From NCBI GenBank assembly GCA_040954595.2, contig CM082595.2:8290317-8354316 (forward strand): 64,000 bases of DNA, written 5' to 3'. Shown piece after piece: positions 7,683-42,400 of this stretch. The notes under the pieces are model-generated. The model made no database searches and had not been told where the DNA came from. It saw only the letters and a program-made list of their open reading frames with translations. Source of the stretch: Balanoglossus misakiensis. Taxonomy: Eukaryota > Animalia > Hemichordata. A program made the position numbers and the translations under genes. Position 1 is the stretch's first letter; each line of letters starts with the position of its first letter.

Positions 7683-8730
7683 AATTTCTCACACTGCTGG
7701 CCGCTGGGAGTGTGGGATAGGATATCCCCGACGAGTGTGAGAAATACGATCTCAGGTCCTTGGTAGACTGTCGACAGTCCCTCGCGCCTAATGTGTATCG
7801 ATACGGCGTTTCGTGCGAGGGCCGAAGGCCCGATTCGGCGTTTCGTGGTGCGAGGGCCGTGAGGCCCGAGGGACTGTTATAGCTTGTAAGCCTTGCCTTG
7901 ATATTAATTATGCATGCAGAAAATGACGTAGTAAAATTTGCATAAGGGGGCGTAAATCAGCGGCGAAACTATCGAAACAACTAAAACTATCGATGACGGT
8001 TCCTCGGTAAATTCGCCGATTCTGTCCAAGAGAAAAGGTGCGATTTCATAAGCCAAATTTCCCACTGCCCGTTGGCGACGCAACAAAAACATCTTTGCCG
8101 TTGGTCAATGAGTTTATGACGTATATTAACTGTCAATCATTTTACAGGGGCATTTTCCCACAGTGCCCGTGTGAGGGCGAAACAAGGTATAACAGTCCCT
8201 CGGGCCACGCCCTCGGGCCTTACGGCCATCGCACCACGAAACGCCGAATCGGGCCTTAGGCCCACAAAAGATACGGGCCTTACGGCCCTCGCACGAAACG
8301 CCGAATCGATACACATTAGGCGCGAGGGACTGTCGACAGTCTAGTCCTTGGGAGTGTGAGATTCTATTATTCTCACACTCTCACTGAATCAAAAGCTGTA
8401 TATGACGCGAGCGCTGATTGGTTGACAAAGAGTTCTTTCTCTTCGCGCACTAAATGTTATCCAATGGCGTGATGTGTATTACAGGCACAGAACTATAACG
8501 TGCCCCCAGACGACAGTTCCAGAGTCATTTATTCAATGTTTTAACGAATTTGGCTAATTTGTGACCGTGTGAGAAAAATAATCTCACACACCAAGGACCT
8601 GGGATCGTATTTCTCACACTCGTCAGGGATATTTTGTCCCACACTCGCCTGCGGCTCGAGTGTGACAGAAAATCCCCAACTCGTGTGAGAAATACGATCC
8701 CAGGTCCTTGGGAGTGTGAGATTCTATTAA
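7683..8730 (-). mobile_element. non-autonomous long-hairpin element (putative Crypton-type partner), interrupted by a MITE
   Basis: ~150-nt imperfect palindrome at 8580-8725 and repeated tctcacac/gtgtgaga half-sites. Reverse-oriented relatives at ~36100-36498, ~40420-40818, ~51000-51410 and ~61825-62150. Confidence 0.65.
7764..8343. mobile_element. MITE with TAG…CTA ends, long TIRs and 8-bp TSD (hAT- or Academ-like; superfamily uncertain)
   Basis: TIR tagactgtcgacagtccctcgcgcctaatgtgtatcgat… extends imperfectly for over 100 bp. TSD gtccttgg at 7756-7763 and 8344-8351. Confidence 0.85.
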
Positions 8731-9937
8731 TCCCAAATGTCATAGCAGCTGCCCCTTTAAAACAATTTCTTTAAAAAATGTGTTTCTAATAGATTTGGTC
8801 AGGTGGAAAAGTATGTCACATACTGTTTTCACTGAACACTGATGTGGTTGCAATTTTATTGACACAAATTGAATCACACTATGCATCACATTAGACTTAG
8901 GGGTAAACCATTTTATATTTAGGAGAGTGCAGTTTAGTTTCTACTCTGCCTATTCTCTGATGTTTTTTCTTTACTATTTGGCAGAGGCAAAATGCAGACT
9001 AGTTATGGAAGTGTTCCTAAGTAACTATGCATAAATTATTTCTATTAATCTAAGCACATTATGTAAAATATAAATCAACCAGGTAGACTCATGTCTCCCC
9101 CTACAGTAATGGTGACAATTCTTTTTATAGTACCCAACTTACTCAAGTAAACACACTTAATGTTAGAAAACAGTCCTATAGATATAGCCTGGTCCCCTGT
9201 CCCATTCCTGCTGCTGGTAGTGACAGCAGGGTTAGAAAGTGGGCAGAGAACAAGAGTATCTTACAGGCCTCTTTCATGACCCCTGTGTGACCTTACATCC
9301 TGGTGATTTGTTGGTTTGACATCATTCATCATTCAATGTTAAATACAACAGCTAATCTTTCTAACACAGGCAATGTTTAACAGTTTTGTTCAAGGATGAG
9401 AAAAAATGCATTGATTTAATAGCGTGGTTGGTAAACTCGAAATTGTATACTCACACCGACAAAAAGCCAGGATGTAGAGGTCAAAAGGGGTCATAAAAGT
9501 GGCATGATATAGCACAGTTGCCAGTGGTGTAATGTTTATATAAACTGTGCAACTTCATTCATATTTCTTAGTGGCAGTAATGTTATTATAAATATAAACT
9601 GACATCTGAAATCACTTTGCGATGTCGAAATTCAGTGGGAAGAAACAAACGCCAAAAGTTACCACATTTTATACTGACACTTATTTGTTTTGTACAGTTT
9701 ACCCTATGGATCCAGCTATCATAGGAATAGGTGCAATAATTGTAGCTTTGGTGGGCTGGTTGATCGCTTATGGGCTTGATCAATCATCCCATCTAGGCTA
9801 CAATTATTGCAGATATCATAGGAAGGGCACATTGGGAACCCCCCCCCCCCCCTCACACACACACACACACACACACACAATTTGGGCGACAACACAATAT
9901 ATATATATGATGCAGTCTACAAGTTGCACCGAAATAT

Positions 9938-13549: not shown

Positions 13550-14634
13550 TAATATTGAAGGTCAGAATGCTTTTGATGAGAGAACAATACACCAGTTGCA
13601 AAGTATCTTGACTAACATAAAAATGATTGAATTTTCTGAAGAAGATATAATCTCGCAGTTGGTGTGTTGTTTCCTCATCAAAAGCATTCTGACCTTCAAT
13701 ATTATTCTGTTGAGCTTTACATGCAATCTAGTCTATATATGTTCAGAGGCGATTTTATCATCGGTAACAGATCCTAAATACTAAAAGAGCATAAAATGAC
13801 TGCGACAGATACTTTGTTAGTTGTAACAGGTGTGAAATAAGAATTTGGATAACATTGACAGTATTTTGGCTATTGTTGGGGGGGGGGGGGGGGGTGGAGC
13901 AATAAGTGATTTTGAAACCCCATGTAACACCTGTCTTACCATTAATATGACTGCATTTATGGTACCATAAGGAATGCTAACAAAATGACTGGGGAACCCT
14001 GGTTACATTACCCTGATCACCACAATGGTTCAGTCCAACTGCATTGTTTTCTATGGTAAGGTTGGACCTCTGAAGAGGGAATTGGGGTGGAAGGGTTAAA
14101 AAAAAACACTGACTGACAATACTGCCAATAACAAAATATTGTTTTATCTTCTCTTTGTATACAGCACACCAATACAGAAACATTGTATATTGATCTGCAA
14201 CTCTCCTCCATATCCTTTGCCAAGTCAAGATAGTATTAATTACAGTGGATTTACTGCAGAACAATTGGCTGCCATGTTGGGTGAGGTAAGTAAGCGATGT
14301 AAAACATTTCATACAACACTGCATACTAACAATAGTCATATCAACCTGACAAGGGAAGATGAAAAAAAACACTAAGCCCCATTGAACAGCTGTATTTTCT
14401 TGGAATCTGGTTTTATAATAAACTTTGATTGATTGAAATGTGTTTTACATCTAAATGCATCGTTTTGGGAACATTTTCTAGAATGTATGTGATTATTAAA
14501 TTGAACTTGTATATTTGCTGGGGGCAACTATTTTTTCATTAAAGATGAGGAATGCCCAATGTTCGGATTGTCTTCAAAAAGATGACAACAACTCAAGTCT
14601 CAAAAACTCTTTGTTTTGAATTTTGAATTGTTTT

Positions 14635-17600
14635 TGTTGCATCAGTAACGACTTCACATGTGGATGCCACATTTTGATTCTTAGCAAATGTTGTATTTTG
14701 ACAGAGAGGAGTCCATTCCTCAATCATATCACCCCGCAAACTGCCTGAACTCCAAAAACTTAGCAACAAAGCGTGAAGTACAGATGGTACCTATGAAGGA
14801 TTATGCGGCTGATCCACACCACATGATACTTCTCAAAGGTTATCAACTTGCTGGTAGGTATCTGTTGCTATGCAAATATTTGCAATCATACCATCCTGAT
14901 TCTAAAGTTCACAGGTCAAATATATAACTTGTTTATGTGGCCATTTACAACCAATTCATCATTTTGTGGTTTGTTAAAATGTTACTCGAAATCGGTACTT
15001 CCATGAAATGGTTGTAATATATTTAATAATATTTATTACACATCACAAATTATTATGCGCTCTTGGTTGGCTAATACTAAATATGATAGTACTTCATGAC
15101 CTCTGCACACGAACTGTGCCTTACAGAAGTTATTTTCGCGAGTGATGCAGTGTATTCTGTTGCAGTACTTTCACAAGCCAAGCATTTTATTCCCCATCAT
15201 GTCAATGCCTGGCCAATGAATTACACATCCTCCTGAAAATTGCTGGTAGGTGAGAAATCAGTTTCCATGGTTGCATCCTGGATGAAACACTGGTACAGGT
15301 TCAAGACAAGTTTAGTGACATTGTGTAAATCCACAGAAGAATTTCACATCAACTCTATAATCTTCAATTTTTCTCATGATTGTGTTTCAGAAAAATCTGT
15401 GTCAAGTGGTGATACATAAGAGGTTGCCATCGTGAAACCTAAAACCATAGCAACCACTTCAGTGTCTACAACCACTACCACAACACAGCCATTGAAACCC
15501 GCATCAACAGTTACCATGTTTACAGCATCTACCTCCAGTATGACCTCAAATCCTCTCAAATCAACTGTTGGAAGTTCAACTCCAGGTAAAGTCTCCAGTG
15601 TTGCTTATGAGACATTTGTCAAATTAGGTCCGCACATAATTAGACCACCAAGTGAAGTGTGAGATATAGTAGAATATTGCCATGTTGATCTTCACTACAA
15701 TATTAGTTAAAGTTATATAGCACTCTGTGATCAACGAGTTGAAAATACAGCATGAGCTGTAGTCCCCTTCATCAGCTGTACACGTAGAATGAACAGAGAA
15801 ACAGAGAATCATGGGGTATTCAAAGTAGGAAATATGTGCAGGACCAGGTGCATCGATCAGAAAAAATTCCTACAGTGGATTTTCTATCTGAGGATGGTGA
15901 CTTCATGACCGCGATATTGTGCCCTTGAGCGAGGCACTTTACTTCTCATTGCTCTTGGGAGACTGGCTTTGTAGAGGTGATTTGCACCTGTTCTAGTCTT
16001 TCTACTAGACATATTTTCTGTGTTTGCGATTGATGAATTACTGTCTAATGGGAAATTTTTGTAAACTTCGCGAGAACCAACAAATGCGAATTAAAAAGTC
16101 ATATAAAAATGTTTTTCGGGGATATTGGTGAAGTTAGTGAAATATAAGAATGCGAAATTTAATTGTAGCATAACAGCTGTCTCTATTGATATTGCGAAAA
16201 TTTCTTGTCACAGAAATTTCCCGTTTATTTAGTGTGTGTGTCTGTCAGTCTGTTGCATCAGTAACGACTTCACATGTGGATGCCACATTTTGATTCTTAG
16301 CAAATGTTGTATTTTGACAGAGAGGAGTCCATTCCTCAATCATATCACCCCGCAAACTGCCTGAACTCCAAAAACTTAGCAACAAAGCGTGAAGTACAGA
16401 TGGTACCTATGAAGGATTATGCGGCTGATCCACACCACATGATACTACTCAAAGGTTATCAACTTGCTGGTAGGTATCTGTTGCTATGCAAATATTTGCA
16501 ATCATACCATCCTGATTCTAAAGTTCACAGGTCAAATATATAACTTGTTTATGTGGCCATTTACAACCAATTCATCATTTTGTGGTTTGTTAAAATGTTA
16601 CTCGAAATCGGTACTTCCATGAAATGGTTGTAATATATTTAATAATATTTATTACACATCACAAATTATTATGCGCTCTTGGTTGGCTAATACTAAATAT
16701 GATAGTACTTCATGACCTCTGCACACGAACTGTGCCTTACAGAAGTTATTTTCGCGAGTGATGCAGTGTATTCTGTTGCAGTACTTTCACAAGCCAAGCA
16801 TTTTATTCCCCATCATGTCAATGCCTGGCCAATGAATTACACATCCTCCTGAAAATTGCTGGTAGGTGAGAAATCAGTTTCCATGGTTGCATCCTGGATG
16901 AAACACTGGTACAGGTTCAAGACAAGTTTAGTGACATTGTGTAAATCCACAGAAGAATTTCACATCAACTCTATAATCTTCAATTTTTCTCATGATTGTG
17001 TTTCAGAAAAATCTGTGTCAAGTGGTGATACATAAGAGGTTGCCATCGTGAAACCTAAAACCATAGCAACCACTTCAGTGTCTACAACCACTACCACAAC
17101 ACAGCCATTGAAACCCGCATCAACAGTTACCATGTTTACAGCATCTACCTCCAGTATGACCTCAAATCCTCTCAAATCAACTGTTGGAAGTTCAACTCCA
17201 GGTAAAGTCTCCAGTGTTGCTTATGAGACATTTGTCAAATTAGGTCCGCACATAATTAGACCACCAAGTGAAGTGTGAGATATAGTAGAATATTGCCATG
17301 TTGATCTTCACTACAATATTAGTTAAAGTTATATAGCACTCTGTGATCAACGAGTTGAAAATACAGCATGAGCTGTAGTCCCCTTCATCAGCTGTACACG
17401 TAGAATGAACAGAGAAACAGAGAATCATGGGGTATTCAAAGTAGGAAATATGTGCAGGACCAGGTGCATCGATCAGAAAAAATTCCTACAGTGGATTTTC
17501 TATCTGAGGATGGTGACTTCATGACCGCGATATTGTGCCCTTGAGCGAGGCACTTTACTTCTCATTGCTCTTGGGAGACTGGCTTTGTAGAGGTGATTTG

Positions 17601-17842
17601 CACCTGTTCTAGTCTTTCTACTAGACATATTTTCTGTGTTTGCGATTGATGAATTACTGTCTAATGGGAAATTTTTGTAAACTTCGCGAGAACCAACAAA
17701 TGCGAATTAAAAAGTCATATAAAAATGTTTTTCGGGGATATTGGTGAAGTTAGTGAAATATAAGAATGCGAAATTTAATTGTAGCATAACAGCTGTCTCT
17801 ATTGATATTGCGAAAATTTCTTGTCACAGAAATTTCCCGTTT
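14635..17842 (+). repeat. near-identical 1.6-kb tandem duplication (period 1616)
   Basis: 14635-16226 matches 16251-17842, separated by a 24-nt filler. Confidence 0.95.
15835..15990 (+). mobile_element. SINE fragment with CORE/V-type conserved box
   Basis: gtgcccttgagcgaggcacttt motif typical of animal SINE central domains. Repeated at ~17530 and ~29540. Confidence 0.4.
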
Positions 17843-20019
17843 TACAGTTCATAAATAAATCAACTAGATCTTTTTACTGCAGATGCCACACCAACTAATC
17901 ATCTGTTACCTGGACGACCAAGTCAAATTGGAAGTCAGTCTCCACAACAACTGTCATCCTCTCAACAGAAACTGACTCAACCGAGTCAGCCCCAGATGCA
18001 GGGCCAAGGTAAAAGGTCATCAATGCCTGTTGCCCAGCCTACCAGTTTACCAAACCAACCAGTATCCACTGTCACAGCAAACAGGACACAACAACCCAAT
18101 GTGACTGCCTCAAGTATCCCCATGAGACAATTTTTGTCCACTCAGGTACAGTTGTTGTCTATGTGATTTAAATTAGCTGTTTCTAGTTACCCATCTTGTG
18201 AATTGAAAGCTTTTTATGACTGTTTCACATAGCCTTGTGTTACCATTTTCTATACAGTAAACTATTGTTTCAAAACACATTCAAAACTTCTGTTTTGGTT
18301 GCTAGAAACCCACTCTGTGAATGCAAAGACTCTTTTGGATAATGCCTGAGACTCAGTGATCAATTTCAATTTTTAATGAGATTAATGTTGATAAGCCCTA
18401 ATGTGGGTATGTGTGTTGAAAATAGGACTTAGAGAGTTGCAAGCTCAACATCGAATCAAAAATTGAAGTCATGAATTTAAAATGGGGTTTTGAATACTGG
18501 CCTTGATAATGCTTCATATTAACTAGGTTTGTTACTCTTTTTGGACAGGCAACTTCACCACCAAAGATGACTTCCCAGCATGCACCAGCTGCTGCACTGA
18601 AAGCCGCAGAGGGTGTCATGCAAATGGCAAATGCTAGTCAGTTCAGTAAGATGCCACCAATTGCTGCTGTGAATCCTATCAACTCACAGTCACGACAGAA
18701 ATGGCCACAAAGAGGTAGGTACAGTCAAACCTGTCTATACTGGCCAGTCAAGGGACTTCCAAAACTGACATTTATAGACAGGTGGCTTCTATAGACTGGT
18801 CAATAAATGTGCAATGTACATGTACATGAAATGAAACAAAGTTGCCACTACATAGAGGTGGCCACAAACACATAGTTGACTGTCATATATGTTATGTTGC
18901 CATGGCAGTCATTTACCATGAGTTCGATTATACATTGCCAAAACCGGAGGAAAAAAATATTCAAGTTCCCCTTTTCATATTCTCCATCAATGGTATAATA
19001 CGCCAGTGTCATGACCACACACAACTTCCACCCTGCTTGTAGCCACGAGAGTGAAAAAAACCTCACCAATATGAACAATCGGTCTCTATCATTTATTCAT
19101 TTTGGGCGAGTTTTTATGCTCATATCATTCAAGCGGGATGGAAATTGTGTATGGTTGAACATTCATTCACTACATATACATATGTACATTAACATAAAAT
19201 GTCTCTTGTATCAAACATAATGGAAAAAAAGGGCAGCGAGAGAGAGACTTTGTCCCTTTAATAGAAATGTGCATCTATTTCAACTATTACTTCTGTCTTG
19301 AACAATCTTTCCTTAATAGAGTGGTGTACTGATTAGAGAGATGTCTTATTGACAGGTTTCACTGTATAATATCAACATTTTCAGTTCCATAATCCTTCAG
19401 TGTTTGCCAGAGAATTTCGACAGCACTCAAAAACTTTCTCTGCCATACTCACAATAAGAGAAAGCTTGCACCTGTGTTTTACTGTTAAATTACCATACCA
19501 CAAAAAACAGTTTGTTTTTGCGAGCAATAAAGTTTTCGCGAAATATTGGAGAACCAACGAACGTGAAAATAAAAAGTCGCGTGAAATGTTTTTCGTAGAT
19601 AAAGATGCAATGAAATACGAGAATGTGAAAATTAATCCTCACGTAACAGTTTGGTCTTTTAATGTCGCGAAAAATTTCCTTTCATGAAAATAATCCGTTT
19701 TACAGTCTGGTAATATTGAAGGTCAGAATGCTTTTGATGAGAGAACAATACACCAGTTGCAAAGTATCTTGACAAACATGAAATGATTGAATTCTCCAAA
19801 GAAGATATAATCTCGCAGTTGGTGTGTTGTTTCCTCATCAAAAGCATTCTGACCTTCAATATTATTCTGTTGAGCTATACATGCAATCTAGTCTATATAT
19901 GAACAGAAACATTGTATATTGATCTGCAACTCTCCTCCACATCCCTTGCCAAGTCAAGATAGTATTAATTACAGTGGATTTACTGCAAAACAATTGGCTG
20001 CCATGTTGGGTGAGGTAAG

Positions 20020-22760: not shown

Positions 22761-24510
22761 CCTGCCCACCCCTCCCCCCTTCCCTTCAGCCTTACGTTAT
22801 GAAGCCTGGGTTACTGAAATTTTCCCCAATGACCCAGACAAAGATTTTATTCTTGACGGGATTGAACAGGGTTTTTGCATTGTCGATCCTGGTTCTAATA
22901 TCCGCCCTGCTGAGACAAATAATTACAAATCTGCAACGGACCCCTCATTTCGTGTTGCAGTGGAGGAACAAATTTTGGTTGAGTTGAGTGAAGGTCGTTA
23001 TGAGGTCACATCTGACAAACCAACTATTGTAAGCGCACTGGGGGCCATTCCCAAACAAAACTCTCCAGATGTTAGACTGATTCATGATTGCAGTCAACCG
23101 CCCAATTTTGCAGTCAACGACTATGCAACTAATCCTTCGTTTTCCTTCCAAACCTTTGGGGAGGCCACCAAATTAATTAAGCCAGGGTCCTTTTTAGCTA
23201 AGGTGGATTTGAAGTCTGCATACAGGTCTGTCCGTATCCATCCATCTATTAATAGTGCTACTGGGTTGAAATGGACCTTTTCTAACATGCAAGAGGCTAC
23301 TTATATGTTCGACACGAGGCTCCCATTTGGAGCCAAAAAGGCCCCCATCATTTTTCACCGTCTCACCCAAGATGTGCGTAGGATGATGCATCGCAAGGGT
23401 TATGTTTGTTTAGTGGTCTACCTTGATGATTTCCTCATTGTTGCAGATACTTACCAGGAGTGCCAAATTGCCCTGAACACCCTTATTTCATTGCTTCGTA
23501 AGTTAGGGTTTGCTATTGCTTGGGGGTAAGGTTGAGAGACCCACTCAACGGTTAGTATTTTTAGGTATTGAAATTGATACCCGCGCTTTTACTGTTGCCT
23601 TGCTGCTGCCAAAGCTTCATGAGCTTTATTCATTGCTGCTTATTTTTCACACAAAAACACGTGCATCCCGCCGCCAGCTGCAATTCCTTGCTGGGAAATT
23701 AAACTGGGCTTGCCAGGTCATTGTCGGAGGTAGGACTTTCCTCCGTCGCATCCTGGAATGCATTAATAATCTCCGCCAACCTTCTCATAAAGTTATCCTT
23801 GGTAGGGAATTTAAGGCCGATCTTGATTGGTGGATTCGCTTTTTACCACATTTTAATGGCACTTGCAAGATTCTGAATACAGACCCTATAACTGATGTGC
23901 ATACAGATGCTAGCAACACCGCTGCCGGTGCTTATTTTAGGGGGGATTGGGTGTACACCAGGTGGGCTGACTGGCCATCTACTTCACACTTCATATTAAT
24001 TACAAAGAGGTGCTGGCTGTTGCAGTGGCAGCACAAAGATGGGCACCTGTGTGGGCAAATCATAGAGTTGTAATTCACACGGACAGTATGTCTGCTATGG
24101 GTATGCTTAATAAGGGGACATGTCGCCATCCATTCATGATGTCTGTGCTTCGTTCTCTATTTTGGCTCTCAGCTTCTTACAACTTCAGCATTCAAGCAGT
24201 TTATGTTCCTGGTAAACTCAATCACATTCCTGATGCCATTTCCAGGTTGCATCAACCAGGTCAGTTCATGAGGTTGCATACACTGCTCCACCCTTATGGA
24301 GAGCTCCACCCCACCTTCACCTTAGCTAGCTTCCCACTTCACATGCCTTATACTGCTGCTACCTTTCTTACTCGTCAGATCCAGAGATCAAACAGCTGGA
24401 GGAACATCTGGATAGGGAAGTGGCCACATATAGAGGAAGTGCCTTTGCAGAAAATACACAGCGCACATACTCTGTCCACTGGAAGTCATACATCTCCTTT
24501 TGTGTTATGA
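22645..24510 (+). pseudogene. Ngaro ORF2 reverse transcriptase-RNase H, two frameshifts (~23526, ~23990)
   Basis: Motifs RLIHDCS, KVDLKSAY, LPFG, YLDDF, FLGIEID, TDAS, HINYKE, HTDS and NHIPDAISR are spread over ORFs 22960-23529, 23510-24073 and 24010-24510. The first frame is open back to 22645 and overlaps ORF1. Confidence 0.9.
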
Positions 24511-25385
24511 TGGGTTACCCCCCTTTGCCAGCCGGTAGTGACCTGGTTTGTCGTTACACAGCCTACTTAGCTCGCCGTCTAAAGTTCAACTCAGTGAAGC
24601 AGTATTTAAATATTATTCGTATTTTGCACTTAGAGCATGGCTTCGCCAATCCACTCCAAGACAATTGGCTGCTGACTATGCTGTTAAAGGGCATAGCCAA
24701 AGTTAAGGGAACTACAGTTGCCAGGAAGCTGCCTCTCACCCCCACATTGTTATTGGGCATTCACAGTCAGTTATGTTTTTCATCAGCCTTTGATTCTGTC
24801 TTTTGGGCAGCCTGCCTTGTGGGTTTCTTTGGGTTGCTGCGCAAATCCAATTTCTTAGTTCCTTCAGGCTCTAAGTTTGACCCAGACAAACATCTAACTA
24901 GGGCTTCCTTCCAGGTGCATGCATGGGGTCTCACCATCATTATTCAATGGACCAAAACGCTACAAACTCGGGATCGGGTTCTTCAAGTTCCTCTCCCATG
25001 GATTCGCAATCACCCATTATGCCCTGTTTCTGCAGTCCTTAGGGCATTTCAGCATTCTAAGGGGGCACCCCCTACAGGCCCAGCCTTTGTCATCCCTGCA
25101 GGTAATGGTAGCTTCCGCCCGCTCACTGTCCCACAGTTCACCTCAAAGCTCCGCACCCATCTTAGTCGCCTAGGGGTGCAGGTCAGTGAATATTCTTCAC
25201 ACAGTCTCCGTCGGGGAGGGGCATCCTGGGCAATACAGTGTGGGGTTCCCAGTGATATAATTAAGCTGATGGGGGATTGGAGGAGTGACGCATACCTTCG
25301 TTACTTGGTCCTCCCCCTCCCTTTCAAAGTTAACTCTGTTAAGCTTTGTGCCAAACAGCTTCCTTTTTCTACTTCTACATTGTAA
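24420..25385 (+). CDS. Ngaro tyrosine recombinase
   Basis: LLRKSN, TKT, CPV, SHSLRRGGA, GDWRSDAYLRY: catalytic R, K, HxxR, W and Y are all present. Confidence 0.92.
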   Translation: MATYRGSAFAENTQRTYSVHWKSYISFCVMMGYPPLPAGSDLVCRYTAYLARRLKFNSVKQYLNIIRILHLEHGFANPLQDNWLLTMLLKGIAKVKGTTVARKLPLTPTLLLGIHSQLCFSSAFDSVFWAACLVGFFGLLRKSNFLVPSGSKFDPDKHLTRASFQVHAWGLTIIIQWTKTLQTRDRVLQVPLPWIRNHPLCPVSAVLRAFQHSKGAPPTGPAFVIPAGNGSFRPLTVPQFTSKLRTHLSRLGVQVSEYSSHSLRRGGASWAIQCGVPSDIIKLMGDWRSDAYLRYLVLPLPFKVNSVKLCAKQLPFSTSTL

Positions 25386-27389
25386 GCAAGTTTTCTATGA
25401 CTACCACTACTATATTGGGTTTTTGGGAGAATTTTGTAGTAAACACAGACAGACTTCAACTGTCCATTAGTATGTGTTTTTGTCAGTATTAAAGTTTCCC
25501 CCAAAGTTGTGCCCAATTTGTGTGTCCCAGTGTGGTTTGTGTGTGAGAGCCAGTGTGCCTTAAGGAGTAGCTCTAAGTGAGCGCTGATTAAGGCGCGGTG
25601 GGGACAGTAGGGGTCCGTGTGCCAGCCAAACTTATGCTGTCTCAAGACCGCCGGAGGGAAAGTTTCCCGGGCTTGTCATTGCCACTTTTGCATTCGGCAG
25701 AGCAGCAGGCTGGACACGGGACGCTATTGACCCACCCTCCCACCACACATTCCAGGGAATTTCTGCCTGTCTTTGTTGCTTTATATTATTTATATTTATT
25801 GTATTTATTAAAAGCATTGTTTGTATGCTTTGCATTGTTTTCATAGTTCTTTTGATAGTGTAGTTTTCAGGGGGAGAATTTTGTAGTAAACACAGACAGA
25901 CTTCAACTGTTCATTAGTATGTGTTTTTGTCAGTATTAAAGTTTTCCCCAAAGTTGTGCCCAATTTGTGTGTCCCAGTGTGGTTTGTGTGTGAGAGCCAG
26001 TGTGCCTTAAACATTTCATACAACACTGCCTACTAACAATAGTCATATCAATCTGACAAGGGAAAATGAAAAAACACATCTTTTCAAACTAGCTTACTGT
26101 GCGGACCAATTTCATTAAGCTCCATTGAACAGCTATATTTTCTTGAATTCTGGTTTTATAATTAATTTTGATTGATTGACATGTGTTTTACATCTAAATG
26201 CATCGCTTTGGGAACATTTTCTCGTATGTATGAGATTATTAAATTGAACTTGTATATTTGCTGAGGGCAACTAAATGTTCAGTAAAGATGAGGAATGCTC
26301 AATGTTTGGATTGTCTTCAAAAAGATGACAACAACTCAAGTCTCAAAAACTCTTTGTTTTGAATTTTGAATTGTTTTTGTTGCATCAGTAACGACTTCAC
26401 ATGTGGATGCCACATTTTGATTCTTAGCAAATGTTGTATTTTGACAGAGAGGAGTCCATTCCTCAATCATATCACCCCGCAAACGGCCTGAACTCCAAAA
26501 ACTTAGCGACAAAGCGTGAAGTACAGATGGTACCTATGAAGGATTATGCGGCTGATCCACACCACATGATACTTCTCAAAGGTTATCAACTTGCTGGTAG
26601 GTATCTGTTGCTATGCAAATATTTGCTATCATACCATCCAGATTCTAAAGTTCACAGGTCAAATATATAACTTGTTTACGTGGCCATTTACAACCAATTC
26701 ATCATTTTGTGGTTTGTTAAGATTTTTATTACTCTAAATTGGTACTTCCATAAAATGGTTGTAATATTTATTACACATCACGTATTGTTATGCGCTCCTG
26801 GTTGGCTAATACTAAATATGACAGAACTTCATGACCTCTGCACACGATCTGAGGCTTAAGGAAGTTATTTTCGCGAGTGATGCAGTGTCTTCTGTTGCAG
26901 TACTTTCACAAGCCAAGCATTTTATTCCCCATCATTTCAATGCCTGGCCAATGAATTACACATCCTCCTGAAAATTGCTGGTAGGTGAGAAATCAGTTTC
27001 CATGGTTGCATCCTGGATGAAACACTGGTACAGGTTCAAGACAAGTTTAGTGATATTGTGTAAATCCACAGAAGAATTTCACATCAACTGTATAATCTTC
27101 TATTTTTCTCATGATTGTGTTTCAGAAAAATCTGTGTCAAGTGGTGATACATAAGAGGTTGCCATCGTGAAACCTAAAACCATAGCAACCACTTCAGTGT
27201 CTACAACCACTACCACAACACAGCCACTGAAACCCGCATCAACAGTTACCATGTTTACAGAATCTACCTCCAGTATGACCTCAAATCCTCTCAAATCAAC
27301 TGTTGGAAGTTCAACTCCAGGTAAAGTCTCCAGTGTTGCTTACGAGTCATTTGTCATAATTAGACCACCAAGTGAAGTGTGAGATATTG

Positions 27390-27581
27390 AACACCTATTG
27401 CCTGGCCATGAGGGCCATAGCGGCCGTTTATTACACCCGAGGGGCTGTGAGTTACCAGAATCACATGCTATTTCTCGAGGCCGTAGGCCGAGGGAAATAG
27501 CGTATGATTCTGGTAACTCACAGCCACGAGGGTGTAATAAACGGCCGCTATGGCCCGAATATAGGCCAGGCTATAGGTGTT
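27390..27581 (+). repeat. ~190-nt imperfect palindrome (hairpin) with GTA triloop at 27483-27485
   Basis: Arms 27390-27482 and 27486-27581 are reverse complements apart from a few small internal loops and mismatches. Confidence 0.95.
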
Positions 27582-27791
27582 TTATAATAAACCTCATGCT
27601 AACAGTTTATGTTTGCAATATTGAACAAGTTTAATTAAATACCTTGAATACGAAATACAATAAATTCAACATGAACGGATGCTATAACTCGAATAAAACA
27701 GCTTACGGCTTATTATAATGTAATATGCAAAATTTGGTAAGCTGACAAAGTACAACTTTTGACAGTCAATTGGCTTCGGATTCCATAAAGC

Positions 27792-29153
27792 CTAATTGTT
27801 GTGGATGTTGACGACGCATCCATGAAAGTTATAGTTCACTACTTTCTTACTACCGCTCACTTCTTGTTGAGTAACAAAATTAACCGGCGGCGGCGGAGAA
27901 GAAGTAGTCAGTTCACTCAGAAATGACCGTTGCAAGGGCGATGCCATTATCGGAGCTAGCGACGACTGCGGCTGTTGTATTGTTTGTGCGCCTTCTATCT
28001 GTTCGTTTGTCGACGAACTTCCTTGAATAGCACTGGAAAGTGTACGGCTCATTTCTCGCTTCTTGTCTTCACCAACTCTGCTATAACTTCTGATACTGGT
28101 CTCTGATTTGTGACCACTAACTCCCATGATATGCCGTGCCTCGAAGCCTTTGTCGTCCAGCGTTGTCACAGTGGTAGCACGCAAACAGTGGTTGGTGTAC
28201 GTACGAGAACATTCAGCTTCGACAGATATTTTCTTCATTTTGTCGGCGAGCGTATTTTTACCAACTGCTATGCTGTCATACCAAACAGAGTCATCTTGAC
28301 TTTTCAGTGCTGGTTTTGGTCGCTGCCAAAAAGCCTCAGAGTTTGGGTTTAGCTTTGTTAAATACAATTCAAAAGACCAAACTGGACATAGCGAGTTTTC
28401 AGGAGTCTCGTACATCCTCCCTCCTTGACTCATTTCCGCGTCGTCTATACAGCCACGGTGATTTTTCGTCAGCATATCTTTACAGAGCGACACATATTTC
28501 AGGCCCGTTGAATCACGTTGGACGACGAAGTGCGACTTCGTCATGTTATGTAGATTTTCGCGGCCGCGATTGCATAGATACATCATAATATCAACGAAAA
28601 CCTTGTTTTGTAACCCGCGTGGCGTTGACTTGTCAAGTGCAGACGACAACATCATTTTTGTCATGTCATCTTTGGTAACGGGTTCTTTATGTTGCGTTGC
28701 ACCCTTACCCTCGCCTTTCAGTTTTACAAGCATTGCAGTGAATACATCATTGGCAGGCTTGAAAATCTCACTGTGGATGATGTCGGTGCCGCACTGTTTC
28801 AGAAAATATCGTTGTAAGCCATATCGTATTGTTATCATTGACTTACTCGAATACAGCTGTGCGTTGTTCTGTCGAACCCCAGCGTAGAAATCCCGCAGCG
28901 TGAGACACAAATCGGCTGGCGCAGTCTTTTCCACGTCGGATATGGTAGTACCAATTTCTTCACAAAACGAAGTAAAAATCCTCATTGCGTATTGAATTAC
29001 ATATTTGGTGTTACGTGAATCCTTGTTGTCGACAAGGTGTTGCAGTTCTTGCTCCGACAAAAGGGAAAATCTTGCAATTTTCTCTTTAGGTTGGCATACG
29101 ACATCTTCAGCGGTGGCCATTGTGCTAGCAGACGATGCGACGCTGATTGACAT
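27792..29153 (-). CDS. Crypton-type tyrosine recombinase (DUF3504; related to the KCTD1/ZMYM/QRICH1/KIAA1958 domain), 453 aa
   Basis: CNRGRE, TKNHRG, CPV..FELYL, FWQRP, WY…VGKNTL, YTNHCLRAT, SGHKSETSIRSY: full R-K-HxxR-H-Y set. Intronless and uninterrupted. Confidence 0.92.
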   Translation of the reverse strand: MSISVASSASTMATAEDVVCQPKEKIARFSLLSEQELQHLVDNKDSRNTKYVIQYAMRIFTSFCEEIGTTISDVEKTAPADLCLTLRDFYAGVRQNNAQLYSSKSMITIRYGLQRYFLKQCGTDIIHSEIFKPANDVFTAMLVKLKGEGKGATQHKEPVTKDDMTKMMLSSALDKSTPRGLQNKVFVDIMMYLCNRGRENLHNMTKSHFVVQRDSTGLKYVSLCKDMLTKNHRGCIDDAEMSQGGRMYETPENSLCPVWSFELYLTKLNPNSEAFWQRPKPALKSQDDSVWYDSIAVGKNTLADKMKKISVEAECSRTYTNHCLRATTVTTLDDKGFEARHIMGVSGHKSETSIRSYSRVGEDKKREMSRTLSSAIQGSSSTNEQIEGAQTIQQPQSSLAPIMASPLQRSFLSELTTSSPPPPVNFVTQQEVSGSKKVVNYNFHGCVVNIHNN

Positions 29154-29159
29154 GACCCT

Positions 29160-29250
29160 GTGACGTCACGTTGGTCACGTGACCGGTTTATATTTTTTCT
29201 GCTATTGCCCTATCGGTTCATAGTCGATTCTATTTTCCTATCACGTGACG
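29160..29250 (-). promoter_or_regulatory. candidate internal promoter of the Crypton-like ORF
   Basis: TATAAA on the minus strand ~35 nt before the ATG, TGACGTCA at 29161-29168 and two TCACGTGA palindromes (~29175, ~29242). Confidence 0.35.
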
Positions 29251-30129
29251 GATTCTGGCGAATCACGGCACAGTATTAGCATGAGGTATATTATAAAGTA
29301 GAATATTGCCATGTTGATCTTCACTACAATATTAGTTAAAGTTATATAGCACTCTGTGATCAACGAGTTGAAAATACAGCATGAGCTGTAGTCCCCTTCA
29401 TCAGCTGTACACGTAGAATGAACAGAGAAACAGAGAATCATGGGGTATTCAAAGTAGGAAATATGTGCAGGACCAGGTGCATCGATCAGAAATATTTCCT
29501 ACAGTGGATTTTCTATCTGAGGATGGTGACTTCATGACCGCGATATTGTGCCCTTGAGCGAGGCACTTTACTTCTCATTGCTCTTGGGAGACTGGCTTTG
29601 TAGAGGTGATTTGCACCTGTTCTAGTCTTTCTACTAGACAAATTTTCTGTGTTTGCGATTGATGAATTACTGTCTAATGGGAAATTTTTGTAAACTTCGC
29701 GAGAACCAACAAATGCGAATTAAAAAGTCATATAAAAATGTTTTTCAGGGATATTGGTGCAGTTAGTGAAATATAAGAATGCGAAATTTAATTGTAGCAT
29801 AACAGCTGTCTCTATTGATATTGCGAAAATTTCTTGTCACAGAAATTTCCCGTTTTACAGTTCATAAATAAATCAACTAGATCTTTTTACTGCAGATGCC
29901 ACACCAACTAATCATCTGTTACCTGGACGACCAAGTCAAATTGGAAGTCAGTCTCCACAACAACTGTCATCCTCTCAACAGAAACTGATTCAACCAAGTC
30001 AGCCCCAGATGCAGGGCCAAGGTCAAAGGTCATCAATGCCTTTTGCCCAGCCTACCAGTTTACCAAACCAACCAGTATCCACTGTCACAGCAAACAGGAC
30101 TCAACAACCCAATGTGACTGTTTCAAGTA

Positions 30130-34300: not shown

Positions 34301-37300
34301 TGATTTTGAGTGATATTGCAGTACAAAATTACAAAAAAATACTTTTTATTCCTTGGGGAAGTGTTAATTATTCAGAAAAAAAATATATTCTGAAATTTTC
34401 CAACTTCAGAATTTTTCCAACTGCAACAGAGGATATGATTATTTCATCAACTAACATGTAAAAGTTATTTAAAAAGTCAACTATGTCAATTAATGCATTA
34501 TCTGGAAAGATACCTTTTACGTGTCATGAATTACTATAGTTAATATATAGATAAAGGCCTTCATGCAATATTACATACACCAACACTTCATTTTGCAGTA
34601 CGTGAGCTGCGGTGTACTGGCTTTTGCACTTGTCTGAGCTGCAGAAAGTCTTATCATATTGAAATTTACAGAAGGCATTGTTCCCTGCTGTTTTAGAGCT
34701 GTGAGTTAACTGCGTAGAGCTGCCGTTTGTCTACACAATGTTCTAAAAAAGCTGTCAAAGAGAATTTGGTCTGCTGCCAACAAATGACAGCTCAGAACAA
34801 CCATTGCAGACCTGCAGATGAGCTGTGGATAGCTGACTCAGCTCTAAATCAGAGCTGCAGCAGCTCTCTGCAGATCTGCAGGTTTGGTAAGGGATGTAGA
34901 TGGTGAAAGGACGTGACAAGACTCGAATCTGAATCAGAATATGAATCTTGGGCTGTGGAACGTGAAACGTGAAACTTGAAACGTGAATCTTGTATTAGGC
35001 TTACCCTAATTTTTAATGGGTATATTCTTGATAACTCATCACCATGAATGATCATTTCAAAACTTAACAAGGCATATGGCTAAAGAGGATTCAGTGTTTG
35101 TGCACCTTCTATCTGCAATGCTGGATCTATTGACAGTTTTCAAAGGGGTTTAAAGACTCGTCTTTTTATTCAGTACTTTCTATTTCATTCCATTGCTTTT
35201 TTGGTTAATAGGGACTGTCTTTCAGAACTCTTTGGTTTGTTTCGTGTTTTTAAGTGTAATTTATTATCCTTTAAGCTTTCACTTGTTTTCTAATTTTATT
35301 ATTTTCTGTAGAAAATGCACTGAGATGTATGTGTATTATGTTTGTCAGGAAATAAATAATAATAAAATTAAAAATAATAAACTGTCTTTGATTTCAGATG
35401 TCAATGAATGTATGGAGAGAGCAGATCTTTGTGAAGGCCAGTGTGTGAATACAGCAGGCTCTTTTTATTGCACTTGTGTTGTGGGATATTGATTGGTCAA
35501 TTGAGAGTGTACAGGTAAGACCAGCACAATATGTGGGCAAAGAAAGGTCCTGTATCTGTAACTTTTGAATTTTTATTCAATATTATTCTGGGTGTCACCC
35601 ATCATTTCTTGTTCAGCTCGGTGAAGCTAGGTCTGTAACTTTTGAATTTTTATTCAATATTATTCTGGGTGTCACCCATCATTTCTTGTTCAGCTCGGTG
35701 AAGCTAGGTAAGCAATGTTGTTATTGTTTAAACATTGTATTCAAGCCTGGGTCTGGACTTGGATGCAATTTGTCAATAATAACAGTGATTGGTAACTGCA
35801 TGTTTACATAACTGGCTAACTGTTAAAAAGACCAGCTGTTCTATTTGGTGTGTGTACAGTACACATGCCATTGGCAGCTTATGGCTCAGTCAGTGTTTGC
35901 CTGTTGATTTCTCTATGTGTGTGTGTCTGTCTGTCTGTATATGTACTCCGGTGTAGACTTTTTTATTGTGTTATCCCTGAATGGGACCACTGTGTCCTTA
36001 ACGCGATGTTTTACACTCAGCAGCGATATTTTGTCTAACACGAGTCAAAATATCCCCAACTCGTCTGAGAAATCTTATCCCAGGTCCTAAGGTTGTGAGA
36101 CTAATAGAATCTCACACTCCCAAGGACTTGGGATCATATTTCTCACATGTGTTGAGGATTTTCTGTCCCAAACAAGCTGCAGGCGAATGTGGGACAAGAT
36201 ATCCCCGACGAGTGTGAGAAATACGATCCCAGGTCCTTGGTTTGTGAGATTATTTTTCTCACACGGTCACAAATTAGCCAAATTCGTTAAATAAATGACT
36301 CTTGAACTGTCATCTGGTACATTGTAGATTCAGTATCGCGTCATTGGATAACATTTAGCACATGTTGTTAAAGAACTCTTTGTCATCCAATCAGCGCTCG
36401 CATCATATACAGCTCTCGATTCAGTGAGAATGTGGGATTGATTTGTTCTCACACTCTGATCCAACACTCTCAGCATGCCAGGAGTGTGAGAATCTATTAC
36501 GAGTTTGAAATCTTAGGTGAAGAGTTTATCAATTTCACTGCCAACCCTGTAGGGCATTCTGGGATATGTGTTCATGCCAAAGCACAAACAGCCATGACCT
36601 GACAGCTCAGTTTGTAGATCATTTCTACAAATCCACAAAGAGACTCAAAGTTTAGAAATGTTGTGTCGGTTAGAAATATTAGACGTATCACTGTTAATAC
36701 TTTATTTCAAAGCCATGTGAATTTGTTCACATTAGGGAAATTTTTTAAAGGAAGGGAGGATTGGTATTGACTTGAATAATTACAATGGATGTATTGTCCA
36801 CCTCTATATAGTGCCCACTTTATTCTAGTCCCTGTGTAATTTATATCTACATTAATTGACTTTTCTACCAGGTATAATGGCCACCTGTCTATAAAGGCCA
36901 GTTTAGGAAAGTCCCTTTACTAGCCATAATGGACAGGTTTGACTGCACTTGTGTTGATTTCTGTCTGTAATATGTGTAACACAATCATAAAATTTTTCAT
37001 AAAGAGGGCACACTTCCAAAATAAGGTGTCATCTCCAAGCAGACAATGTGAAAAAGGAGGCCGGTAGGTTACAGAGTACTGCTCGAGCTCATCTACTTTG
37101 TTGTATACATGATACAAGTTGCGTGTAAAACTGACCTTACAATAAAATGTGGCTGTGGAAAGTCTGTCCCAACTATAGTGTTGATACACAAGACAAAGTT
37201 TTTACTCTTTGACCAACTGGCCTCATGTTTGCGTCTTGGAAGGGCACCCTCTTTATGAAAAAGGCATATGATATCACTACAAGGAATAAATTAACATGAT

Positions 37301-39401: not shown

Positions 39402-42400
39402 ATTTTTAATGGGTATATTCTTGATAACTCATCACCATGAATGATCATTTCAAAACTTAACAAGGCATATGGCTAAAGAGGATTCAGTGTTTGTGCACCT
39501 TCTATCTGCAATGCTGGATCTATTGACAGTTTTCAAAGGGGTTTAAAGACTCGTCTTTTTATTCAGTACTTTCTATTTCATTCCATTGCTTTTTTGGTTA
39601 ATAGGGACTGTCTTTCAGAACTCTTTGGTTTGTTTCGTGTTTTTAAGTGTAATTTATTATCCTTTAAGCTTTCACTTGTTTTCTAATTTTATTATTTTCT
39701 GTAGAAAATGCACTGAGATGTATGTGTATTATGTTTGTCAGGAAATAAATAATAATAAAATTAAAAATAATAAACTGTCTTTGATTTCAGATGTCAATGA
39801 ATGTATGGAGAGAGCAGATCTTTGTGAAGGCCAGTGTGTGAATACAGCAGGCTCTTTTTATTGCACTTGTGTTGTGGGATATTGATTGGTCAATTGAGAG
39901 TGTACAGGTAAGACCAGCACAATATGTGGGCAACGAAAGGTCCTGTATCTGTAACTTTTGAATTTTTATTCAATATTATTCTGGGTGTCACCCATCATTT
40001 CTTGTTCAGCTCGGTGAAGCTAGGTAAGCAATGTTGTTATTGTTTAAACATTGTATTCAAGCCTGGGTCTGGACTTGGATGCAATTTGTCAATAATAACA
40101 GTGATTGGTAACTGCATGTTTACATAACTGGCTAACTGTTAAAAAGACCAGCTGTTCTATTTGGTGTGTGTACAGTACACATGCCATTGGCAGCTTATGG
40201 CTCAGTCAGTGTTTGCCTGTTGATTTCTCTATGTGTGTGTGTCTGTCTGTCTGTCTGTATATGTACTCCGGTGTAGACTTTTTTATTGTGTTATCCCTGA
40301 ATGGGACCACTGTGTCCTTAACGCGATGTTTTACACTCAGCAGCGATATTTTGTCTAACACGAGTCAAAATATCCCCAACTCGTCTGAGAAATCTTATCC
40401 CAGGTCCTAAGGTTGTGAGACTAATAGAATCTCACACTCCCAAGGACTTGGGATCATATTTCTCACATGTGTTGAGGATTTTCTGTCCCAAACAAGCTGC
40501 AGGCGAATGTGGGACAAGATATCCCCGACGAGTGTGAGAAATACGATCCCAGGTCCTTGGTGTGTGAGATTATTTTTCTCACACGGTCACAAATTAGCCA
40601 AATTCGTTAAATAAATGACTCTTGAACTGTCATCTGGTACATTGTAGATTCAGTATCGCGTCATTGGATAACATTTAGCACATGTTGTTAAAGAACTCTT
40701 TGTCATCCAATCAGCGCTCGCATCATATACAGCTCTCGATTCAGTGAGAATGTGGGATTGATTTGTTCTCACACTCTGATCCAACACTCTCAGCATGCCA
40801 GGAGTGTGAGAATCTATTACGAGTTTGAAATCTTAGGTGAAGAGTTTATCAATTTCACTGCCAACCCTGTAGGGCATTCTGGGATATGTGTTCATGCCAA
40901 AGCACAAACAGCCATGACCTGACAGCTCAGTTTGTAGATCATTTCTACAAATCCACAAAGAGACTCAAAGTTTAGAAATGTTGTGTCGGTTAGAAATATT
41001 AGACGTATCACTGTTAATACTTTATTTCAAAGCCATGTGAATTTGTTCACATTAGGGAAATTTTTTAAAGGAAGGGAGGATTGGTATTGACTTGAATAAT
41101 TACAATGGATGTATTGTCCACCTCTATATAGTGCCCACTTTATTCTAGTCCCTGTGTAATTTATATCTACATTAATTGACTTTTCTACCAGGTATGATGG
41201 CCACCTGTCTATAAAGGCCAGTTTAGGAAAGTCCCTTTACTAGCCATAATGGACAGGTTTGACTGCACTTGTGTTGATTTCTGTCTGTAATACGTGTAAC
41301 ACAATCATAAAATTTTTCATAAAGAGGGCACACTTCCAAAATAAGGTGTCATCTCCAAGCAGACAATGTGAAAAAGGAGGCCAGTTGGTTACTGTTGGAG
41401 TACTGCTCGAGCTCATCTACTTTGTTGTATACATGATACAAGTTGCGTGTAAAACTGACCTTACAATAAAATGTGGCTGTGGAAAGTCTGTCCCAACTAT
41501 AGTGTTGATACACAAGACAAAGTTTTTACTCTTTGACCAACTGGCCTCATGTTTGCGTCTTGGAAGGGCACCCTCTTTATGAAAAAGGCATATGATATCA
41601 CTACAAGGAATAAATTAACATGATAGAACATTGCTGATTAATGTCATAGATCATGATAACATGAATGCATAGCAATGTTTTGGTACAATTTGGTACATAA
41701 AGAAATGGACTACTGTGACAGTATTGACTCTGGGCACTACGTAGATGATTCCCAGCCTCAAAATTCTGACTTGCTTCACCGTTGGAAGAAGTCAGTTTTC
41801 AGGTTAACATGTATATTTGTACAGAGTGTGGCATTAGTGAGTGGTTGCATCACATCAATGCATGATAAAAGGTCATCACTGTGTAAGACTCAGAAATAGA
41901 ATTTGAATACAAATCCTATTAAACAAAATATTCTAAAATTTACATGTTATTTTAACACCTGTTTACTCCTATAAAAGTGAGTGCACGTGTTTTCGAGGTC
42001 TCTTCAATTCAGAAGCCACTGTGTAGGCCTTAGTTGGTGCATGCAGCTCGTAGACTTAGAAATTAAGTTTGGTTCAACTCAAACGCTTCAAGTCCAGTTG
42101 ACCATCTCACACTTCTGACACTGGTGGGATTCAAACCAACTTCATCGAAATGACTGCAGGTGCCTAAAACCCCTTGACTGTAGGACACAAATGCCTGACA
42201 GTGATATAACTATGTTATAATGTTACATCGACAATACATACGTTTGGGGATATGTTGTCTCAAATGATCAAATTGAGACAAATTATCCCCATCTTGTTAT
42301 AAATCTGAGCCCAGGTGTCTTTGGTGTGAGATTCCAGTAGTCAAGAGTAGGCTTACCTTGAATAATGTAATGCTTGTAAATTATTTCGAATTTCTTCTTA

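Follow-up and report, generated by a model that had tools for sequence, protein, structure and literature searches.

A CryptonA-type transposon of Balanoglossus misakiensis with a strand-biased terminal hairpin, and its possible recombination as a folded single strand

The window analysed here is a 64,000-nucleotide stretch of the genome of the hemichordate Balanoglossus misakiensis (GenBank assembly GCA_040954595.2, contig CM082595.2, positions 8,290,317 to 8,354,316), and it contains a 1909-bp element that, judged by its sequence, is an intact CryptonA-type transposon with a single tyrosine recombinase (YR) gene. One end of the element is a long hairpin in which GA repeatedly faces GA, and sequence comparison with relatives shows that this one-strand pattern of GA:GA loops and GNA or GNNA caps is conserved over stems that are otherwise unrelated. 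The terminal architecture is real, conserved, part of a known transposon group and apparently unpublished; that it serves recombination of a single strand is a specific and testable proposal with roughly an even chance of being right. Features are listed in Table 1, with positions numbered from the start of the window.

Table 1. Features of the CryptonA-type element and of the second hairpin family in the window
Feature	Position	Strand	Remarks
Whole autonomous CryptonA-type element	27388..29296	.	1909 bp; two empty paralogous sites; joint 27387>29297
Terminal hairpin	27390..27581	+	192 nt; 3' of gene; GA-bearing strand antisense to the open reading frame
Outer GA:GA loop	27410..27558	+	27410-11 facing 27557-58
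Middle GA:GA loop	27439..27529	+	27439-40 facing 27528-29
Tip motif	27477..27491	+	GA:GA loop 27477-78 facing 27490-91, four pairs from cap
cGTAg triloop cap	27482..27486	+
Proposed 7-nt spacer, hairpin-side terminus	27388..27394	+	putative role; 27388-27389 unpaired in predicted fold
Proposed 5-nt spacer, internal core site	27577..27581	+	putative role; between hairpin arm and internal repeat
Internal inverted repeat	27582..27602	+	complements far terminus, 20/21 pairs
Far terminus	29276..29296	+	proposed recombinase half-site, its end the putative crossover point
DUF3504 tyrosine recombinase	27792..29153	-	453 aa; R196 K230 H322 R325 H348 Y357
Gene-less second-family element	8370..8729	-	cGCAg cap, GA:GA loops, internal repeat; same design
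Decayed second-family copy	36102..36438	+	inserted exactly at half-site/spacer border of a core-like site

The terminal hairpin

The three GA:GA loops are in exact register, in the contexts TGAG/CGAA (outer), CGAG/CGAG (middle) and CGAG/CGAG (tip), and both folding and the register check agree with the original prediction of a hairpin of about 190 nt with a cGTAg cap and three loops in pyrimidine-GA-purine (Py-GA-Pu, or YGAR) context. The fold energy of 27390-27581 is -92.8 kcal/mol for the + strand and -87.3 kcal/mol for the - strand (z about -20 for both), and none of 200 shuffled sequences is as stable. Folding of both strands, which that prediction had put forward as a check, recovers the hairpin, with a strand preference by energy of only 5.5 kcal/mol. 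The nearest-neighbour model behind this difference assigns no extra stability to GNA loops and favours GA:GA over TC:TC by just about 0.4-0.6 kcal/mol; its energies cannot test a claim about sheared G:A pairs and GNA loops, and the claim for one strand therefore rests on conservation and on published DNA structures, in which the stable motifs include GNA triloops, GNNA tetraloops and CGAG blocks containing sheared G:A pairs (PMC10085684, PMC8163305). Among the rows listed, two within-family changes restore Watson-Crick pairs (27475 T>C and 27502 G>A), and three further changes fall in the hairpin, with partners outside those rows.

Conservation and strand bias among relatives

A metagenome scan gave 216 stretches encoding relatives of the recombinase, the best 80 of which were analysed and form, together with the window, 54 clusters at 80% nucleotide identity. 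Thirty clusters were counted, these having at least 950 nt downstream of the catalytic tyrosine or a hairpin present, a rule that favours positives. A hairpin of 92-192 nt starts 270-870 nt downstream in 18 of the 30; by comparison, a hairpin in the 950 nt upstream of the open reading frame (ORF) is present in 3 of 18 clusters. GA faces GA on the antisense strand in 15 of the 18 hairpin clusters, giving 29 loops that are all (29/29) in Py-GA-Pu context, against no mirror TC:TC loop in any of the 18 and three other self-facing loops, the member with the most GA or TC loops being taken from each cluster. Counting all 29 hairpin loci gives 49 GA:GA loops to 0 TC:TC, and a strand-neutral scan of 81 loci for the tip motif returned 24 antisense matches and one sense match, the latter in a neighbouring hairpin in locus L168. 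The GA:GA loops are thus strand-biased across relatives; random or strand-unbiased mismatches were among the outcomes that the original prediction had named as counting against it.

The stems vary widely. Median stem identity between clusters is 45%, versus 41% for shuffled sequences, and of 14 stem positions that follow the tip loop, 13 have at least two Watson-Crick pair types (12 clusters). Stem pairing is 89% versus 42% with swapped arms, the percentage being inflated by an anchor chosen for pairing, and six clusters have no anchor. The longest perfect run in the 18 hairpins is 11-38 bp. Their caps include seven GNA triloops (one with a damaged stem), four GTCA or GCTA tetraloops, two decayed and five unrecognisable caps, with no GNRA among the tetraloops. 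Hairpin-bearing loci are scattered over a quick tree of the fetched relatives (five short rows left out) rather than forming one clade. As both arms read GA, the repeat is direct and not inverted, so that a duplex-binding site provides no explanation for it.

Further GA:GA hairpins lie near recombinase genes in non-terminal positions (L180:1-184, L204:178-308, L149:4120-4222 and L168:3184-3258), three in the orientation of the gene and one opposite, and are probably neighbouring non-autonomous copies. Comparing L134 with L135-L138, and L159 with L141, one copy shows perfect pairs in place of its outer GA loops, either through arm-to-arm conversion or as an assembly artefact.

Boundaries, inverted repeat and core sites

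Two empty paralogous sites in the window (junctions 15667/15668 and 17283/17284) both read GAGATAT-AGTAG, the hyphen marking the junction, and at the filled site exactly 27388-29296 is interposed between the same letters with zero duplicated bases, and hence no target-site duplication (TSD). No identical direct repeat flanks the element, empty and filled sites are clean and without break scars, and 27387 is joined to 29297 in a contig of run X2. The ORFs of at least 80 aa inside the element are the 453-aa gene and one overlapping 114-aa frame; as this frame is the sole other one, there is no reverse transcriptase (RT), and no RT/RNase H ORF of the DIRS and Ngaro YR retrotransposons is found among the ORFs of the element. 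The junction letters, the ORF survey and the catalytic residues described below bear out the original prediction of a 1909-bp insertion with two empty paralogous sites, no TSD, one intact 453-aa YR and no RT. The source of the empty sites is a set of recent segmental repeats with 1616-bp and ~4.3-kb units (14635-17887, 26378-29900 and 33163-62154). The left target flank (27374-27387) holds GTGTGAGAT, the half-site of the second hairpin family described below, which may be chance or may reflect target choice by half-site likeness.

A feature absent from the earlier account is a 21-bp inverted repeat (27582-27602 / 29276-29296). When the whole + strand is folded, 27582-27602 pairs with 29276-29296 with a probability of 0.79-1.0 at 20 of 21 positions, and the repeat stem stacks on the hairpin, with 27388-27389 left as a predicted 2-nt bulge; in this predicted fold the two termini of the element thus meet at one point. 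Over the 24 loci compared, the segment following the hairpin fits the opposite end more closely than shuffled sequences do in 11 (9 clusters). The internal complement of the far end is up to 46 nt long, adjoins the hairpin base and varies together with the far end. The hairpin base itself repeatedly shows a motif similar to TGTTTTATTATAC. Five copies of one relative (L134-L138) have identical termini with four different flanks at one end and five at the other, these flanks being AT-rich and without a fixed duplication.

We infer the half-site borders, which give proposed spacers of 7 nt at the terminus and 5 nt at the internal core site. An alternative register has an 8-nt internal and a 10-nt junction spacer, with the 2-nt difference unchanged; the register of 7 and 5 is preferred because the crossover then falls at the half-site border, as in the second family.

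Deleted derivatives in the run contigs (e.g. with the joint 27605>29063) retain the hairpin, the internal repeat and the far end, and in one sample the read depth of both ends is at least 100-fold above that of the ORF, depth here being no measure of copy number. These derivatives bear on the possibility that the hairpin is a separate miniature inverted-repeat transposable element (MITE), as also considered in the original prediction, or a neutral palindrome beside the gene. Such an origin would suit the many unrelated palindromic repeats of the window and the three clusters with a hairpin upstream of the ORF, but the hairpin lies inside an insertion bounded by empty sites, on the same side and strand in 18 clusters, and is joined to the far end in the deleted derivatives. 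We give it almost no probability; the empty sites, the derivatives and the constant position across relatives refute the separate MITE. With the loops strand-biased and the hairpin no MITE, selection on a fold of one strand is well supported.

The recombinase

The 453-aa protein matches PF12012 (DUF3504) with E 8e-11, above the Pfam cut-off. It has 375 relatives; among the 120 listed, those that are named belong to a horseshoe crab, bivalves and echinoderms. With the query aligned to 36 of these 120 matches (37 sequences in all), R196 is conserved in 36 of 37, K230, H322, R325 and Y357 in 37 of 37 and H348 in 32 of 37, the catalytic roles being taken from the known YR motif order. The R-H-R-Y catalytic set is thus kept, unlike in the domesticated ZMYM and QRICH1 proteins. 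A fold search with the predicted structure (predicted local distance difference test, pLDDT, 79) places QRICH1 at rank 1, Cre at rank 2 and the integron integrase IntI at rank 37. Searches of viral contigs for relatives of the recombinase gave 44 pattern matches and 0 confirmed. The CryptonA label reflects the DUF3504 domain, the catalytic set and the absence of RT and TSD, and the tree contains fetched relatives only. The element had originally been called Crypton-like; the link to Cryptons stands, and the reserve in "-like" can be dropped.

A CCAAT-box-like motif, TGATTGG, lies 20-50 nt inside the gene-upstream end in several relatives (the 5' ends of L126, L127, L128, L134 and L142) and in the second family, and the window element has a similar CTGATTGAC at 29139-29150, further in than in the relatives. 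This motif is a possible promoter.

A second hairpin family

The window holds a second, gene-less family of the same design, which is tied to a recombinase by that design only. The element at 8370-8729 is head-to-tail with a second, interrupted copy starting at 8369, and their junction reads half-site, 7 nt, half-site, with 5 nt at the internal site. The decayed copy at 36102-36438 has paralogues starting at 40422, 51005 and 61827, and all four represent one event. A second-family copy is interrupted by a ~580-bp insertion at 7764-8343, whose inverted ends contain TGTCGACAGTC and which has several GGCC mini-hairpins.

DNA or RNA

The fold likely acts as DNA rather than RNA. An RNA model rates G-GA-C equal to C-GA-G, so the restriction of all 29 loops to Py-GA-Pu is a DNA-type signature, and this model gives the hairpin caps no bonus. 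Action as RNA in an antisense transcript, in regulation, in termination or as a source of small RNA, with an ordinary DNA mechanism alongside, appears highly improbable. Tandem GA pairs do stabilise RNA as well (~2 kcal/mol over UC:UC), and Rfam returns a microRNA-precursor model for the hairpin at 39.5 of 74 bits, below the gathering score and as expected for any long hairpin; a terminator-like phage hairpin with the same tip also fits a role as RNA. Such a role is nonetheless hard to reconcile with a GA strand that is antisense to the mRNA, with caps that are triloops or non-GNRA and earn no bonus in the RNA model, with a Py-GA-Pu restriction that this model does not predict, and with a hairpin base that is the insertion boundary and coincides with the inverted repeat.

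The phage hairpin (L064:2478-2540) lies between convergent ORFs and is followed by a T run; its tip reads GA-GGCC-GGA-GGCC-GA. In viral contigs overall the 17-nt tip pattern occurs in at least 125 stretches; in the 124 loci checked, six matches in five loci have at least 18 of 40 flanking pairs, with one clear long stem, and no recombinase was found beside the viral matches.

Comparison with known systems

The element is like other CryptonA elements in its single DUF3504 YR with intact catalytic residues, its animal host, its lack of RT and TSD and its far more abundant non-autonomous derivatives, and it departs from those described in that it ends in a hairpin, has an inverted repeat in subterminal position and carries a core motif that is conserved. 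Animal Cryptons are described as lacking terminal repeats or conserved nucleotide features, with no studies of their transposition, in the 2011 survey (Kojima and Jurka 2011; PMC3212892), and as having no detectable terminal repeats in a later report (Glomhopper 2026; PMC13465315); the terms "hairpin" and "palindrom" are absent from the available texts of both. We read the terminal repeats found here as an overlooked CryptonA feature and not as exclusion from the group, the 2011 criterion being descriptive rather than diagnostic. Eulor5/Eulor6, Crypton-N1_SSa as well as CryptonA-N2_SSa (salmon) have been classed as non-autonomous Cryptons and grouped by terminal similarity (Kojima 2018; PMC5753468), in a text whose available part, the alignment figure lying outside it, does not contain "hairpin", "palindrom" or "inverted repeat". 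The available part of Frith 2022 adds nothing on Crypton ends. Our literature search, with Repbase/Dfam entries, figures and supplements outside its scope, found no description of this Crypton end structure.

By analogy, the folded geometry resembles the attP(+) of phage CTXphi more than attC. A folded-strand route is known from such bacterial viruses: in CTXphi, attP(+) arises by folding from attP1, with a 12-bp centre, and attP2, with one of 5-7 bp, and is used by one exchange and replication (PMC4246890, PMC3442271). The shared features are two inverted core sites ~90-190 nt apart, a one-strand fold, unpaired bases in the overlap, the occurrence of tandem copies and unequal spacers, these being 7 versus 5 nt in both the window element and the second family with the borders proposed above. 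The differences are also clear: the element has its own recombinase and not the XerCD of a host, varied AT-rich flanks and no dif target, a core that exists only after the ends join, a long GA:GA stem and an animal host, and activity on the fold is shown for CTX but putative here.

The resemblance to attC put forward in the original prediction fits poorly in detail. Structure is conserved while sequence is not, and one strand is favoured, as for attC. In attC, however, extrahelical bases of the bound stem decide which strand is used, and the terminal structure plays no part (PMC2727003), whereas the asymmetric features here, a cap and GA loops that are themselves symmetric (2x2), lie far from the crossover. 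The fold is predicted to leave a 2-nt bulge at the terminus, and the GA:GA loops are paired-type loops away from it; being ~20-90 nt from the crossover terminus, they are unlikely to be read like the extrahelical bases of attC. The DUF3504 protein is also no closer to IntI than to Cre.

CryptonF of Chlamydomonas and the fungal Starships are likewise eukaryotic YR DNA transposons. They use short donor/target homology (CAYCG and TTAC, respectively), in contrast to the window element with no identical flanking direct repeat, and no fold-back end is mentioned for them in the available text (PMC9977147; 10.64898/2026.09.21.753150).

Proposed mechanism and its alternatives

We lean slightly towards a recombinase whose substrate is the folded strand, which would be exchanged once before replication completes the process; this is the simplest account of all the parts, and the element likely moves as a folded single-stranded circle. 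The antisense strand is predicted to fold with the internal repeat paired to the far end and stacked on the hairpin, so that the termini lie side by side. On a bare strand, for example at a replication fork, the recombinase would close a circle by joining one terminus to the other. Pairing of the junction core (7-nt spacer) with the internal core (5-nt spacer) within this circle would create a single site of two arms, with 2 nt bulged out. The circle would then enter an AT-rich site through exchange of one strand where half-site and spacer meet, and the resulting junction would be resolved by replication, as for CTXphi. The GA:GA loops would not be enzyme contacts, and may instead allow a stable fold of one strand while interrupting the duplex palindrome. 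That many animal CryptonA are single-strand recombination elements, whose ends stack into one site for one exchange and replication, seems to us as probable as its opposite; in this evenly balanced reading, the marks of the site are GNA/GNNA caps and sheared GA pairs specific to DNA. A folded circle would yield no flipped hairpins and a fixed terminal spacer, and both are seen in a small sample.

Several observations weigh against recombination of a folded strand. Twelve of the 30 clusters have no hairpin in the interval searched; in seven of these the ORF is broken, the full motif of L191 lies further out and L132 has a degenerate hairpin, while L129, L153 and L172 have intact ORFs and no hairpin found in that interval. 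The test used detects no GA:GA loop in three of the 18 hairpins, loop contexts in L180 and L191 are non-YGAR (with other closing pairs), and the far-end match is without significance in 13 of the 24 loci. Single G.T and A.C mismatches (8 to 4) are uninformative on strand, and the clusters share ancestry and so are not 18 independent trials, an independence that the p value of the strand-bias count overstates. The fold search shows no preference for an integron integrase over Cre, and the phage hairpin with the same tip indicates that the motif also occurs outside these elements and that it may function as RNA.

Other objections favour duplex ends and a duplex circle (the Goodwin model), with the hairpin serving in priming, as an origin for circle copying or in protection; this is the main rival, which we nevertheless consider unlikely. 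The circle junction reads half-site, 7-bp spacer, half-site, a normal core usable as duplex, and folding is then not strictly needed; the tip motif, at a distance of ~90 nt from the crossover, has a conserved sequence. In fungal Starships, integration occurs from a synthetic circle (10.64898/2026.09.21.753150). CryptonF elements that are active agree with the duplex model and nonetheless increase in copy number (PMC9977147), and the data on both fit a circle without folding. A duplex circle leaves unexplained, however, why the complement of the far end lies directly at the hairpin base and varies with that end, and why two families have a 2-nt spacer difference; with unlike spacers it should also give variable terminal letters, whereas the copies L134-L138, a small sample, keep theirs.

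It is very unlikely that a cruciform is extruded in duplex DNA and that the recombinase resolves its four-way junction into a hairpin-capped linear intermediate, in the manner of a telomere resolvase. Tyrosine recombinases do resolve four-way junctions, the hairpin base is exactly at the terminus, and one direction of resolution would leave the GA-strand hairpin on the element. Extrusion needs both strands folded, though, and is disfavoured by mismatches that limit the longest perfect runs to the lengths given above; hairpin-ended replicons usually yield flip and flop forms, and only one hairpin orientation is seen among relatives, nor do the clean empty and filled sites have the scars of breaks.

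Other features of the window

Palindromic repeats without the GA:GA tip motif, at 13550-13704, 19711-19864 and 9732-9811, provide a contrast within the window. Within a GC-richer block from ~20 to 26 kb, the region 24088-25385 has a 292-aa ORF with a weak Phage_integrase match, preceded by a 140-aa ORF that we take to resemble an RNase H end. These ORFs are likely a YR retrotransposon of DIRS/Ngaro type.

Implications for Cryptons

The anatomy described here supplies exact substrates for testing how animal Cryptons move, and a sequence-independent signature for locating Crypton ends and for classifying palindromic non-autonomous repeats. If the folded strand is indeed the substrate, a mechanism of bacterial integrons and filamentous phage would also be at work in animal genomes, and these elements would represent a eukaryotic equivalent of the recombination of CTXphi and integrons, with a small recombinase, a donor defined by structure and a target that is loosely AT-rich. 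Eulor5 and Eulor6 are palindromic, which would give them the same design, and recombination of this kind might account for these ancient repeats of vertebrates.

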